Positions 4,301-10,989 of a stretch of 10,989 nt of DNA are shown here, piece after piece. Source of the stretch: a virus; the UHGV virus genome UHGV-1791444, one strand, 5' to 3'. The translations under genes were made by a program, and so were the position numbers. Each line of letters starts with the position of its first letter. The stretch's first letter is position 1. The notes under the pieces are model-generated. The model was given only the letters and a program-made list of their open reading frames with translations, was not told where the DNA came from and did no database searches.

Positions 4301-5212
4301 ACTGGTAGTAAGCGTAAGTTCGATGACCGCTGGCTGAAGACCGCTGGTATATCTGACGAGCAGTGGAAGGGCATTAAGTCATTAATCCGTGAGTCAGTGA
4401 CTCGTGGTCCAGACGGGAAGTACACAATCAAGGATAAGAAGGCGTTCAGTCAGGACCCAAGGGCTATGGACCTGTGGCGTATGGGTGACACCATCGCTGA
4501 CGAAACGTTACTCCGTCCCCACAAGCTGTCAAACATGGACGCCAAGGCTTATGGTCCTCTCGCTAAGACTGTCCTTCAGTTTAAGAACTTCGTCGTCAAG
4601 TCCATCAATGGACGTACCATGCGAACCTTCTATAACGCCACGAAGAACAACCGAGCGATGGATGCTGCTCTATCTACCGTGATGTCTATGGGTCTGGCTG
4701 GTATCTACTACATGGCTCAGGCTCACGTCAAGGCTTACGCTATGCAGGATGGCAGAGACCGTGAATACCTCAAGCAAGCTCTTGACCCGACGATGATTGG
4801 TTATGCGGCTCTGTCCCGTAGTTCACATCTGGGTGGCCCACTTGGGGTAGCTAACATTCTGGGTGGCATCGCTGGGTATGAGGACACTAAGATGCTCCGT
4901 TCGTCTATCCTACCTCGTTCGCCTACAGAGAAGCCTGAACGTGCCATCGCGTATGGTGCGGCTACAAGTGACCCTGTTATGAATGTTGTTGGTAACTTCT
5001 TGGAGCAGGTTCCAGCTTTCGGATATGCTGCTAACGTTGGCGCTTCGGCTTACAACTTGGCTGGCTACCTCAAGGCTGATACTCGCGTCAACGAGCGTGA
5101 CTACATGACCGGGATGTATAATACGTTCCGTGAACTGGTTCCGAACGACCCAATTACCCAGAAGCTGTTGCTTGGAACGTTTGAGGAGCAAGGCATCCAC
5201 ATCAAGGACTAA
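1325..5212 (+). CDS. Internal virion protein D, gp16-like (1295 aa), with a divergent N-terminal domain
   Basis: ATG at 1325 lies 8 nt after an AAGGAG Shine-Dalgarno (1311-1316). Long stretches match T7 gp16 as I recall it: GAGVDPLTYVP, MRLEARETARN, RSPTGMQSGASGK, GTYVPHVY, SRPEVK, AYGISH, GLVGLENNSFLEARNLFDSD, RRVNGDIAIM, NGTTNYLLDA, DPRAMDLWR, ALSRSS, ELVPNDP. The first ~130 aa (MVTRGIRNNNPGNIR...) do not resemble the T7 N-terminus. Confidence 0.9.
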   Translation: MVTRGIRNNNPGNIRVSKDQWEGMTGDDGAFVTFDSPESGVRALGKNLLSYGRRGYDSIEKIINRWAPPNENDTKAYIDSVVAATGIPATQSLDLSDPDTLSSLAQAISFHETGSRYDPEVYQKGVARALNGISPKTPPVSANVFDALTEGLKAKPKAALGENLPTAAGLNIEGQAPEAPNESFGEMFYKSTGETMQEREDRSTWFGFGAATEAEVKNSMVGVAIRAGQTEDSLDVIGDVFNPTRWNNHKWSREELDQIRNAGVLPQYYGVITGGSPQNLTELINLALENQKLDQEKAKAGIGAQLAAGVIGAGVDPLTYVPIAGQVGKGGKLVNKMFTVAAQSGALAGVSEMARTSVAGGDAHVAEAILGGALFGGGMTAIADGLGRALGRNTNEFAGPATRLEARETARNVDGQDLSRLPIQEGEETFSHHGVKFADVPNEPGSVRLEDGSILIGENPLNPKTRKVFDEVIEPERAAAGVNLGGLTEIGLKLLRSENPEIRGVAADLVRSPTGMQSGASGKIGTTASDVFERLRAVDHRFYNDIDDAVTEALKDPYFQTAFWRDSGAFRQDIYQRVSMAIEDGSVNLKAELTPGELKVYDLLKNQFDAKREMMENPAMFGRPDAQSIFPGSRFKGTYVPHVYSNQMKELYIKELGSPEALQEAIKKSWLTSYASRPEVKKRVDEALLEADPTLTPEGLAAAVDKYANDKAYGISHTEQFERSSVMEENINGLVGLENNSFLEARNLFDSDMSIVLPNGQTFSVNNLREWDMDKIVPAYNRRVNGDIAIMAGTGKTTKEMKDLVETMMNKAGDDGKLKGEVSTLRDTLKILTGRARRDGADDAAFATVMRTMTDLSFFAKNAYMGVQNLTEIGGMLARGNVRAMLHGVPIFRDLAFRNKKVGASEIKDLHNVIFGKELDDSIRPSKQDVIDRLRSYSDLGRGTATALGTAKYYTGELAVRSPFTKVLNGTTNYLLDAGRQGFLSDIVEHSLTGSKRKFDDRWLKTAGISDEQWKGIKSLIRESVTRGPDGKYTIKDKKAFSQDPRAMDLWRMGDTIADETLLRPHKLSNMDAKAYGPLAKTVLQFKNFVVKSINGRTMRTFYNATKNNRAMDAALSTVMSMGLAGIYYMAQAHVKAYAMQDGRDREYLKQALDPTMIGYAALSRSSHLGGPLGVANILGGIAGYEDTKMLRSSILPRSPTEKPERAIAYGAATSDPVMNVVGNFLEQVPAFGYAANVGASAYNLAGYLKADTRVNERDYMTGMYNTFRELVPNDPITQKLLLGTFEEQGIHIKD

Positions 5213-5230
5213 ACTATCACTATAGGAAAC
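5208..5230 (+). promoter_or_regulatory. Phage single-subunit RNA polymerase promoter, phi17-equivalent (ACTAAACTATCACTATAGGAAAC; predicted +1 G at 5225)
   Basis: Contains the CACTATAGG core shared by T7/T3/K11-type promoters (T7 consensus TAATACGACTCACTATAGGGAGA). It overlaps the gp16 stop codon and lies 52 nt upstream of the gp17 ATG, the position of phi17 in T7. It matches the second site at 10181-10203 at 20 of 23 positions. Confidence 0.7.
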
Positions 5231-5276
5231 GGGAGGCGCTACCATAGGTCTCCGTTTAAATCACAAAGGAGGCATA

Positions 5277-7876: not shown

Positions 7877-8326
7877 ATGCTCGAATTTTTAAAGAGAGCG
7901 GCTCCGTGGTTACTTGCAGCAGTGATGTTTGCTGGTGGCTACCACACCGCTAACAATAAGTGGGAGGCTAAGGTCAATGCAGAATACACCTCGAATCTTA
8001 AGGCATCGGAAGATACAAGGCTTGCTGTACAAGCTGAAGTCGACAAAGTGTCCAAACGGTTTCAGGACGAAATGTCCTCTCTGGAAGGCAGCACTGATAG
8101 GATTATTGCTGACCTTCAGTCTGACAATAAGCGGCTGCGCATCCGAGTCAAACCTACGAGTGGAGCCACGCAAAGTGACGGTCGATGCGTCATTGATGGT
8201 TACGCCGAACTTGACGAACGAGATGCTAAACGTCTTATCGCCATCGGAGTGAAAGGAGACAAGTGGATTAAGGCCCTTCAGGACACGGTGAGAGCCTTAC
8301 AGCAAGATAAGGAGGTGACGAATTGA
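7877..8326 (+). CDS. Rz-like i-spanin, gp18.5-like (149 aa)
   Basis: GGAGG at 7866-7870, ATG at 7877. It has an N-terminal membrane anchor ([13 protein letters not shown]) and matches recalled T7 gp18.5 motifs ([49 protein letters not shown]). Confidence 0.85.
7977..8252 (+). CDS. Rz1-like o-spanin lipoprotein, gp18.7-like, embedded in the +1 frame of Rz
   Basis: Lies entirely inside the gp18.5 gene in a different frame. The signal peptide and lipobox ([19 protein letters not shown]) are followed by ASES...SLMV.PNLT.EMLNV, close to recalled T7 gp18.7 ([23 protein letters not shown]...SLMVEPNLTTEMLNV). Start is set at the ATG at 7977; the frame is also open from a TTG at 7929. Confidence 0.7.
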   Translation: MQNTPRILRHRKIQGLLYKLKSTKCPNGFRTKCPLWKAALIGLLLTFSLTISGCASESNLRVEPRKVTVDASLMVTPNLTNEMLNVLSPSE

Positions 8327-10086
8327 GTAAAGACTTAGTGGCGCGTCAGGAGCTAATGACTGCCCGTATGAAGGCAGACTTCGTGTTCTTCATCTTCGTT
8401 CTCTGGAAAGCTCTTAGCCTTCCGGTTCCAACACGCTGCCAGATAGATATGTGTAAGAAGCTAGCTGCTGGGGATAATCGCCGCTTCATTCTTCAGGCGT
8501 TCCGTGGTATTGGCAAGTCGTTTCTGACCTGTGGTTTCGTGGTCTGGAAGTTATGGAACAACCCAGACTTGAAGTTCATGATTGTGTCAGCCTCAAAGGA
8601 ACGAGCCGATGCGAACTCCATCTTCATCAAGCGAATCATCGACCTCATGCCTCAGCTTCAGGAACTCAAACCTAAGCAGGGACAGCGAGATGCGGTTATC
8701 AGCTTCGACGTTGGGCCAGCCAAGCCAGACCACTCACCTTCGGTTAAGTCCGTTGGTATCACTGGTCAGTTGACTGGTAGTCGTGCTGACATCCTGATTG
8801 CCGATGACGTGGAGGTTCCGAACAACTCAGCTACTCAGGCTGCACGAGACCGACTGTCAGAGCTTGTGAAAGAGTTCGACGCTATCCTGAAGCCGGGAGG
8901 TACAATCATCTATCTGGGTACTCCTCAGAACGAGATGACCCTGTATCGTGAGCTGGAAGGCCGTGGATACACCACTACTATCTGGCCCGCTCGTTATCCA
9001 CGCGACAGGAAGGACTGGCAGTCTTACGGCGACCGTCTGGCACCGATGCTTCAGGCAGAGATGGAAGAGGACCCTGAGTCCTTCTACTGGCGTCCGACTG
9101 ATGAAGTACGCTTCGATGATACGGACCTGAAGGAGCGTGAGCTGTCATACGGTAAAGCTGGCTTCGCTCTACAGTTCATGCTTAACCCTAACCTGAGTGA
9201 TGCCGAGAAGTACCCCCTGAAGCTCCGTGACCTTATCGTAGCAGACTTGGACCCAGCGTCTAGCCCAATGGTCTACCAATGGTTGCCAAACCCTCAGAAC
9301 AAGCGTGAGGACGTTCCTAACGTTGGACTCATGGGTGACTCGTACCACACGTATCAGACTGTAGGTTCTGCGTTCAGCTCATACACCCAGAAGATTCTGG
9401 TCATTGACCCTAGTGGTCGTGGTAAGGATGAAACTGGTTATGCGGTACTGTATCAGCTCAACGGCTACATCTTCGCTATGGAAGTGGGTGGTATGCGTGG
9501 CGGTTATGAAGACTCTACGTTGGAAGCCTTGGCTAAGATTGGTCGTAAGTGGAAGGTCAACGAATACGTCATTGAGGGTAACTTCGGTGATGGTATGTAC
9601 CTTGAGCTATTCAAGCCTGTAGCGGCCCGTATCCATCCTGCGGCTGTAACTGAAGTGAAGAGTAAGGGTCAGAAAGAACTCCGCATCTGTGACGTTCTGG
9701 AGCCTATCATGGGGTCTCACCGACTTATCGTTAACGCTGCTGCTATCGTCCAAGACTACCAGACAGCCTCTGATAAGGATGGCGTTCGTACCCCTATCTA
9801 CTCTCTCTTCTACCAGATGACCCGTATCTCTCGTGAACGTGGAGCCTTGGCACACGATGACCGACTTGATGCGCTGGCTATCGGTGTACAGTTCTTCGTT
9901 GAGTCTATGGCTAAGGATGCCAACAAAGGCGAACGTGAAGTCACTGAGGAGTGGCTGGAGGAACAGATGGAGAACCCACGGAAAGGCTTTGAGTCCATCC
10001 ACACCGAGTTCTGGGACAATGGGGTCCGGGTAACTCACAATACGGACGACGAGCTAGGACTAGGGTCATACGTTACGTTTCACTAG
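8323..10086 (+). CDS. Terminase large subunit (DNA maturase B), gp19-like (587 aa), apparent TTG start
   Basis: Similarity to recalled T7 gp19 runs the full length ([136 protein letters not shown]). The reading frame opens right after a TAA at 8308-8310, and the first start-type codon is TTG at 8323, 7 nt after AAGGAGG (8309-8315). That TTG overlaps the Rz stop. Confidence 0.92.
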
Positions 10087-10180
10087 CTGAATGAATAACT
10101 ATGGGTGAAAGCTGCATGAATACGCAGTTAGTAACCTATAGTTACTACCAGTCTAACCTACTGTTTTACAAGGAGTTTGG

Positions 10181-10203
10181 ACTTAACTATCACTATAGGG
10201 AAG
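10181..10203 (+). promoter_or_regulatory. Phage single-subunit RNA polymerase promoter, phiOR-equivalent (ACTTAACTATCACTATAGGGAAG; predicted +1 G at 10198)
   Basis: Same core as the site at 5208-5230; the shared motif is GGACTWAACTATCACTATAGGRAA. It sits about 110 nt after the gp19 stop and upstream of the small gp19.5-like ORF, matching the position of phiOR in T7. Confidence 0.7.
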
Positions 10204-10383
10204 ACCCCCGGTTACTTATAGTATTACTGTAGTGAATATACATATGCAGACTTTATGCAAGACCTTAGGAGGCAGACTCCGAGTTCTTACCTAAGGCTTG
10301 CACCGATGGAAGGAGGGTGATATTAATCATAATCCCTCCAATACAGATAGTCACCGACCATAGATACAGGAGGTATGTAGCAT

Positions 10384-10542
10384 ATGGCAAAGACCAAAGC
10401 TGTACTTAAAGCTCTGGCGACCAATCGAGCTACATACAGGTTTCTTGCTGCTGTTCTACTTGCTGCTGGCGTTACTGCTGGAAGTCAGTGGGTCGGGCGG
10501 GTCGAGACTCTCGTATGTTCTCTGGTGTCTCAGTGTAATTAA
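10384..10542 (+). CDS. Small hypothetical protein (52 aa), positional analogue of T7 gp19.5
   Basis: AGGAGG at 10368-10373 with ATG at 10384 (an earlier ATG at 10375 is followed at once by TAG). Translation is MAKTKAVLKALATNRATYRFLAAVLLAAGVTAGSQWVGRVETLVCSLVSQCN, a basic N-terminus followed by one hydrophobic stretch. It lies between the phiOR-like promoter and the terminal repeat, as gene 19.5 does in T7. I could not confirm sequence similarity. Confidence 0.4.
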   Translation: MAKTKAVLKALATNRATYRFLAAVLLAAGVTAGSQWVGRVETLVCSLVSQCN

Positions 10543-10575
10543 CGCAATCATGGTAACGATTCATGAGCGGAAGAC

Positions 10576-10618
10576 CTAAGGTCAGTACGTGGATAAAGAC
10601 TCACTCTACTGACCTTAG
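10576..10618. repeat. Perfect 12-bp inverted repeat (CTAAGGTCAGTA / TACTGACCTTAG) with a 19-nt spacer; candidate concatemer-junction hairpin
   Basis: Left arm 10576-10587 and right arm 10607-10618 are exact reverse complements. The repeat lies about 160 bp before the putative terminal repeat, where T7 has a hairpin-forming sequence implicated in concatemer processing. Confidence 0.45.
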
Positions 10619-10703
10619 CTACTGTAGTCAAGGACTTTAGGTAACACCTTAATAGAAGCTCACTTAGGGTCATCCTACTTATTGGTCTATCCTAGTGTCG
10701 CCT

Positions 10704-10742
10704 GACCTACGGTCCTTGACCTACAGTAGCTGCCACCTACAG
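10704..10742. repeat. Three spaced direct repeats of ACCTACRG just upstream of the terminal repeat
   Basis: GACCTACGG at 10704-10712, GACCTACAG at 10718-10726 and CACCTACAG at 10734-10742, spaced about 15 bp apart. This is comparable to the short repeat arrays that flank the T7 terminal repeats. Confidence 0.35.
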
Positions 10743-10779
10743 TCTTCGATGAGTTTTGGACCAAAAGTTTGAGACCACA

Positions 10780-10989
10780 TCTCACAGTTCAAGAACCTCA
10801 AGTCTCCCCATAGGCCCTCTTTAAGTCCAGACCAAAGGCCCTACCCCAGTCTATCATAAGGTTGGACCGGCTGTAAATACCTCAAGTCAACGATAGGTCA
10901 TGACTATCGGTGGTGGTGGAGACGATAGGTAGGGACTATTGGTCTGCCTCTGAGTCTCTATCTGTATAACCATAAGTCACAACCATAAG
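10780..10989. repeat. Putative right direct terminal repeat of the phage genome, running to the window end
   Basis: From 10780 the sequence TCTCACAGTTCAAGAACCTCAAGTCTCCCCATAGGCCC... parallels the T7 genome terminus as I recall it (TCTCACAGTGTACGGACCTAAAGTTCCCCCATAGGGGG...). The 238-bp distance from the gp19.5-like ORF matches the T7 layout. The region is non-coding with internal short repeats (ACCTCAAGTC at 10795 and 10879; ACGATAGGT at 10890 and 10923). The exact boundary cannot be set without the left genome end. Confidence 0.5.

Follow-up and report, generated by a model that had tools for sequence, protein, structure and literature searches.

An inverted repeat (IR) close to the right end of the DNA analysed here (the window, 10,989 bp in full) is, as judged by comparison with related phages, the K1F-group version of a predicted hairpin-forming cis element that the Studiervirinae keep at a fixed site of the right genome end. 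We put the chances at about even (a probability of roughly 0.5) that this IR would be the DNA fold-back point of concatemer maturation, as the K1F-group version of the subfamily hairpin.

The inverted repeat and its conservation within Kayfunavirus

For the last 900 bases of the window there are 222 matching phage records (77-100% identity); nearly all are Kayfunavirus, and Escherichia phage ST31 is the best match. Its sequence and T7-group right-end gene order identify the window as the right genome end of a Kayfunavirus, a K1F-like relative of T7 (Table 1). The start of the terminal repeat (TR) at 10780 was placed from the annotated repeats of Ro45lw, SH4, MopsHU1 and EPr2; the annotated TR start of CR44b maps to 10778, 2 nt earlier than in the other relatives. 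In some relatives (CR44b, Ro45lw), gene 19 and the promoter are separated by a gene for an HNH endonuclease. A separate hairpin (10096-10106/10134-10144) is located just past the gene 19 stop codon, ahead of the phiOR-like promoter. Among relatives this hairpin covaries (TAACTATAGGT/ACCTATAGTTA versus TAACTATGGGT/ACCCATAGTTA, with the window as a G.T intermediate) and looks like an RNA-level element.

Table 1. Coordinates of features in the right end of the window
Feature	Position	Strand	Remarks
Gene 19, terminase large subunit	8323-10086		
T7-type late promoter, phiOR counterpart	~10181-10203	+	acttaactatcactatagggaag; placed from the sequence; a predicted promoter is annotated there in CR44b too
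Gene 19.5	10384-10542	+	52 aa, last gene; the CR44b, LS2 and IMM-002 annotations call it gene 19.5 or a hypothetical protein
Non-coding DNA	between gene 19.5 and TR		237 bp
Short-repeat motif ACCTAMRGT, array	10574-10743		copies at 10574 (+), 10634 (-), 10705 (+), 10719 (+) and 10735 (+)
IR, left arm	10576-10587		CTAAGGTCAGTA; 10576-10586 invariant among relatives, 10587 A or T
IR, loop	10588-10606		19 nt; small inner stem GTG (10589-10591)/CAC (10602-10604), from folds
IR, right arm	10607-10618		TACTGACCTTAG; no variable column in 34 distinct Kayfunavirus sequences or in the 28-sequence set
Second, larger imperfect IR	10617-10731		arms 10617-10642 and 10705-10731 (26/27 nt, one bulge), 62-nt spacer; abuts the first IR
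Conserved box	10622-10633	+	CTGTAGTCAAGG, core AGTCAA at 10626-10631; right after the hairpin
Palindrome TTTTGG-a-CCAAAA	10754-10766		14 nt before the TR; nearly invariant in 34 Kayfunavirus sequences
Direct terminal repeat (TR), right-hand copy	10780-10989	+	starts TCTCACAG / TCTCACAGTTCAAGAACC / TCTCACAGTTCAAG
ATCTGTA	10960-10966		similar to ATCTGTT, the pause motif of the T7 concatemer junction, and correspondingly placed near the right TR edge

The arms of the IR are 100% complementary over 12 nt and lie 19 nt apart. The repeat starts 33 nt past the gene 19.5 stop codon, its right arm ends 161 nt before the TR, and C10575 opposite C10619 prevents a longer stem. The initial annotation had described perfect 12-bp arms with this spacing at 10576-10618, downstream of a phiOR-like promoter and about 160 bp before the TR, and both its coordinates and its distances are right. 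It had also held that such a repeat is unlikely by chance in the non-coding tail, and this is borne out: a perfect IR of at least 12 bp with a loop of 3-60 nt was reached in 0.3% of 1000 dinucleotide-preserving shuffles of the 903-bp tail (1.2% for at least 11 bp and 4.8% for at least 10 bp). The whole window contains no other perfect IR of at least 10 bp with a loop of up to 60 nt. When a 48-nt segment with the IR is folded as DNA, the top strand reaches -11.3 kcal/mol and the bottom strand -12.5 kcal/mol. The isolated hairpin has a z-score of about -5.7 on either strand, with none of 500 shuffles equally stable, and in a looser context of 76 nt the values are -11.4 kcal/mol and z -2.3.

Chance does not account for the IR, whose arms are under constraint and whose loop is free to vary. 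An unbiased set was formed from 27 right ends and the window (n = 28), chosen by gp19 homology or by similarity over the whole of 10500-10800 and not by the IR. Both arms are present in every member of this set, and the sole variation is in the innermost pair, which is A-T in sequences of the window type and T.T in those of the K1F type. The initial annotation had held that absence from close relatives, together with unchanged packaging on deletion, would count against its reading; the repeat is absent from none of the 28 sequences. Among 34 distinct sequences the variable columns number 1 of 24 in the arms, 14 of 19 in the loop and 39 of 39 upstream; as these 34 were partly retrieved with the arm pattern, only the 28-sequence set is an unbiased sample. 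Three loop variants are found (ACGTGGATAAAGACTCACTC, TCATAGCTGACGCTACTC and ACGTGGGATAAACCCTCCACTC, giving hairpin spans of 43, 41 and 45 nt, respectively), every one of which has an inner stem of its own of 3-5 bp. Since the loop length changes in steps of 2 nt, coding is excluded. In IMG/VR the arm pattern is found once per genome (25 stretches from 24 contigs, all of 39-41.7 kb).

Upstream of the hairpin, the flank diverges completely in the 28-sequence set. In K1F and several other phages, gene 19.5 is followed by unrelated DNA up to the hairpin, and conservation resumes exactly at AAGACCTAAGG; the hairpin is therefore part of the conserved right-end block and not of gene 19.5. Extra unrelated sequence in this place was seen in L082 (K1F), L011, L092, L093, L109, L115 and L122-L124, and the interval appears as an insertion hot spot, with all insertions ending at that same point.

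It is highly improbable that the IR is a functionless by-product of oppositely oriented short-repeat units that has survived because Kayfunavirus is a young genus. The loop and the flanks are free to vary, whereas 23 of the 24 arm columns never do, and the complementarity runs 6 bp past the core of the motif (TCAGTA/TACTGA). Moreover, at least five other lineages have hairpins with compensatory changes at the syntenic site (see below). These observations stand against two that suit a by-product, namely that a nearly self-complementary motif (GACCTAAGGTC) builds the region, making inverted matches easier, and that Kayfunavirus right ends share the 77-100% identity given above. With arms that are invariant in Kayfunavirus, no covariation is available for the window's own hairpin, and such invariance is just as compatible with recognition of the sequence as such.

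Counterparts and compensatory changes in other T7-like phages

A hairpin just before an AGTCAA box is also present in T7, T3, K11, BA14, Berlin and the metagenomic relatives L009, L012, L013, L014 and L016. The arm sequences are unrelated between lineages and the pairing is kept, and we therefore regard the window IR as the longest and cleanest version of a subfamily-wide structure. The T7 counterpart, AGGGATTCAGCGGTATGATtgcATCACACCACTTCATCCCT, occupies 39,568-39,608 of NC_001604, starting 29 nt past the gene 19.5 stop codon. Its tip (39,588) is 190 bp left of the TR, and it is followed directly by ATAGAGTCAAG. The T7 records NC_001604 and V01146 carry no annotated feature at the hairpin site.

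The position of the hairpin is shared. It lies 9-33 nt past gene 19.5, ahead of the box and of the short-repeat array that leads up to the TR, with its tip approximately 145-245 bp left of the TR, the distance from tip to TR being 184 bp in T3, 145 bp in K11, 168.5 bp in BA14, 244 bp in Berlin and 160.5 bp in L012. In the window, the IR likewise lies between gene 19.5 and the TR, with the box directly downstream and the tip 183 bp from the TR. The box that follows the hairpin is of the type CTGTAG(A)GTCAA, and reads TATAGAGTCAAG in T7, TGTAGAGTCAAC in T3, TCTACAGTCAAT in K11 and GTAAGAAGTCAAC in BA14 and Berlin; it is also found in L012 and L016, and is degenerate in L009, L013 and L014. The initial annotation had proposed a comparison with the right ends of T7 and T3, and a hairpin is present at the corresponding position in both, before the same box.

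Eight versions of the hairpin were tested against shuffles (the three Kayfunavirus loop types, T7, T3, K11, BA14 and Berlin), and all of them gave z-scores between -3.1 and -6.6 with DNA parameters. A scan of the distant relatives for perfect IRs of at least 10 bp returned almost none; their hairpins are imperfect and become visible only by folding or by mismatch-tolerant scanning. Three further relatives (L008, L017 and L018) were not usable: their context differed, the contig ended there or a clear hairpin was lacking.

The hairpins of these other genera are maintained by compensatory changes. Between T7 and T3, 10 of 41 positions differ. Eight of these make up four double changes between Watson-Crick pairs and two fall at unpaired positions; every pair stays intact. 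With ten substitutions placed at random, approximately 1.5 of 100,000 trials match this pattern (P ~1e-5). For a broader comparison we scored the inner 8-pair helix in an alignment of six sequences (T7, a T7 variant, T3, L013, L014 and L009). In this alignment 85% of the helix cells are paired on the top strand and 96% on the bottom strand; when the partners are slid by 1-3 columns, pairing is 21-50% on the top strand and 21-56% across both strands. Three pairs are changed on both sides, and the covariation score is higher than in all of 500 shuffles. Further pair swaps, in outer and inner stems, distinguish L013 from L014 and K11 from T7. RNAalifold, run on a MAFFT alignment of the T7, T3 and K11 hairpins, recovered the invariant outer stem alone because MAFFT misplaced the gap in K11, and covariation was scored instead on sequences of equal length with explicit structures.

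The probable folding strand and the neighbouring elements

Mismatches of the A.C or C.A type are found on the mRNA-sense strand of the hairpins of T7 (two), T3, K11 and L013/L014 and in the inner stem of K1F, and the complement reads G.T at these places. In all 13 hairpins compared, DNA parameters give the bottom strand the lower folding energy (in T7, -10.6 versus -6.7 kcal/mol; in the window, -12.1 versus -11.3 kcal/mol), and RNA parameters do so in 12 of them. As all genes of T7-like phages are transcribed rightward, the better-folding strand is not the mRNA, which favours a DNA hairpin over an RNA hairpin. The bias is statistically modest, corresponding to about seven of eight semi-independent transition mismatches on that side (P ~0.04), and the opposite case is found next door, where the second hairpin has T.G on the top strand in most relatives. 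Taken together, the hairpin probably acts in DNA rather than RNA.

An RNA stem-loop in late or phiOR transcripts, which might stabilise the 3' end, be processed by an RNase III-type enzyme or make the polymerase pause, is conceivable because the region is transcribed, yet we consider it quite unlikely. No convincing terminator separates the IR from the phiOR-like promoter upstream of it (the sole terminator-like match is a weak 5-bp stem inside gene 19.5), and the 241-nt region folds as RNA at -87.4 kcal/mol. Transcripts would also suit the second hairpin, which allows U.G on the mRNA strand in most relatives, and the separate hairpin after gene 19, which covaries RNA-like through a G.U intermediate. 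The hairpin itself behaves differently, with the A.C mismatches on the mRNA strand of T7, T3, K11 and L013/L014 leaving the RNA-sense hairpin 6-10 kcal/mol weaker than its complement. A scan found no intrinsic (class I) terminator at the hairpin, where the stem is followed by CTACTGTAGTC without a T/U tract, and an Rfam 15 search of 10000-10989 with E-values up to 10 gave no match at the hairpin and two chance-level matches elsewhere (E 0.38 and 9.3). We know of no RNase III site at the corresponding position of T7.

The initial annotation had suggested that the repeat could mark a pause site, and this part was not supported. The class II pause motif ATCTGTT (preceded by A, C or T) is absent from 10576-10618, and the sole match to a T7 RNA polymerase pause motif is the ATCTGTA of Table 1, at the far end of the TR and outside the hairpin. 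A candidate leftward sigma70-like promoter (TTGACT-17-TAGAGT, 10631-10603 on the minus strand) was rejected as unremarkable, the scan control giving 4 matches against 1.6 +/- 1.2 expected. This match uses the AGTCAA box as its -35 element, and its transcript would lack part of the hairpin. T7 and T3 have similar leftward matches (TTGACT-17-TGTGAT and TTGACT-17-TGTAGT).

The second IR has conserved arms among relatives and a spacer that varies by indels. In single-strand folds its hairpin stacks on the first (z -4.3 for 216 nt as DNA, z -5.6 for 241 nt as RNA). An outer helix GAAGAC/GTCTTC that closes both hairpins in the fold of the window was discarded, as it is absent from most relatives. 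T7 (39,649-39,686) and T3 also have inverted repeats at a similar distance from the TR (105-115 bp).

Both hairpins are interwoven with the short-repeat motif ACCTAMRGT, which matches the window six times against 0.53 expected, with five of the matches in the array of Table 1. The left arm of the first hairpin overlaps the first copy, ACCTAAGGT (10574-10582). Just right of the TR, four more copies are present in L004, a sequence that spans the junction (5206-5274). The orientation of the copies is mixed left of the TR and all direct right of it. We take these arrays around the TR to be the counterpart of the SRR and SRL arrays of T7, short-repeat arrays that Dunn and Studier reportedly described next to the T7 terminal repeat in 1983. 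The two systems are alike in having clusters of a 9-nt motif on both sides of the TR, ACCTAMRGT here and a CCTAAAG-type motif in T7. In contrast to the T7 arrays, some of the left-side copies are inverted here and form arms of the two hairpins, whereas the T7 hairpin is located just upstream of the short-repeat array and is not built of its units.

Because the left arm holds a motif that flanks the TR, the arms could be protein-binding units that are inverted by happenstance. The IR would then be a recognition site in duplex DNA, part of a pac region in which a packaging or replication protein (e.g., the terminase small subunit) binds inverted ACCTAMRGT-like units and no extrusion takes place. 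The excess of the motif over expectation, with five copies in 170 bp left of the TR and the four to its right in L004, is in line with such a site, as is the near invariance of the arms and of the adjacent 10619-10642, and symmetric operators likewise co-vary in both halves. Recognition of this kind is unlikely in our view. The 2-nt steps in arm spacing within the genus (spans of 41, 43 and 45 nt) alter the phasing of the half-sites, rotating them by about 70 degrees per step, and each loop variant brings its own inner stem. In the other genera, the arms are not short-repeat units; their hairpins have loops of 3-4 nt and approximately 15 interrupted Watson-Crick or wobble pairs, with the internal-loop architecture kept.

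A proposed role in concatemer maturation and its relation to known systems

Concatemers of T7-like phages hold one TR per junction, common to the neighbouring genomes, and the TR must therefore be duplicated during maturation. If the IR is the fold-back point, leftward DNA synthesis would start at or near the right edge of the TR and copy it. At the IR, the new or displaced bottom strand would snap back and prime synthesis on itself, which would yield a hairpin-ended copy comprising the right-end tail, the TR and the left end of the next genome. The original duplex would retain its own TR, so that both neighbours could be packaged with a full TR. That the hairpin is a strand-specific DNA structure of the non-mRNA strand throughout the subfamily, serving as the turn-around point for TR duplication, is a proposal we make tentatively.

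To our knowledge, the way in which T7-like phages duplicate their TR has never been settled, and the T7 hairpin intermediate of 1990 is the main clue. In that year Chung, Nardone and Hinkle reportedly found hairpin-ended DNA in T7-infected cells and put it forward as a processing intermediate. The T7 hairpin end presumably lies about 190 bp left of the junction repeat, i.e., at the tip of the covarying T7 hairpin. T7 has a second palindrome, CCTATAGG, at 39,735-39,742 and 40 bp left of the TR, which would fit the hairpin end if the mature right end is the point from which the 190 bp is counted.

According to a passage in PMC4281155, a hairpin structure occurs in TR-bearing DNA in the course of T7 infection, and passages in PMC4925675 and PMC11482910 cite the "hairpin end" of T7 as a concatemer-processing intermediate (J Mol Biol 216:939). 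We infer the link with TR duplication, the strand that would fold and the enzymes that would be involved from the T7 experiments of 1990 and from one sentence of PMC4281155. The initial annotation had called the repeat a likely concatemer-processing hairpin as in T7. Of this reading, which is the best supported of those considered and partly borne out, a non-chance and constrained element with a compensated counterpart at the T7 site (190 versus 183 bp) stands; that counterpart may coincide with the T7 intermediate.

The window and the "hairpin end" of T7 share the region between gene 19.5 and the TR, a hairpin-forming repeat at the syntenic site and the AGTCAA box after it. They differ in structure, the window having a perfect 12-bp stem with a 19-nt loop and T7 four short helices (6, 2, 3 and 4 bp) with mismatches between them and a 3-nt loop. 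Another cis element of the concatemer junction that is implicated in maturation is the class II T7 RNA polymerase pause or termination signal ATCTGTT (Lyakhov et al., 1997, as described in part of bioRxiv 10.64898/2026.02.12.705533). In contrast to the hairpin, this signal is short, linear and placed at the right edge of the TR, and its look-alike in the window is approximately 350 bp downstream of the hairpin. The proposed role would also resemble that of hairpin telomeres and rolling-hairpin origins (poxviruses, parvoviruses, phage N15), where fold-back of an inverted repeat turns replication round and regenerates the terminal sequence. There, the genome itself ends in the hairpins, and dedicated resolvases or nickases resolve them, whereas the hairpin considered here would be transient and internal, about 180 bp inside the end, in genomes whose ends are open and directly repeated.

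The hairpin is also a site where assemblers break T7-like genomes. The GenBank records PQ821641 (SD6), OQ860979 (ST21) and OQ860986 (ST3) begin or end at the hairpins, either at the border of loop and right arm (10607/10608) or at the outer edge of the second hairpin (~10733). These ends are probably assembler breakpoints at inverted repeats, and we take them as artefacts because SD6 is a circularised record that was opened there. For engineered T7-like or K1F phages and for packaging plasmids, the right-end cis region, including the hairpin, probably must be retained.

With a hairpin that is kept in at least six lineages by compensatory change and with a bias towards one strand, an observation in a single phage becomes a conserved element. 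If the fold-back reading is true, the covariation and the asymmetry of A.C and G.T mismatches would be the first comparative evidence for a hairpin model that is 35 years old, and would name the strand that folds.
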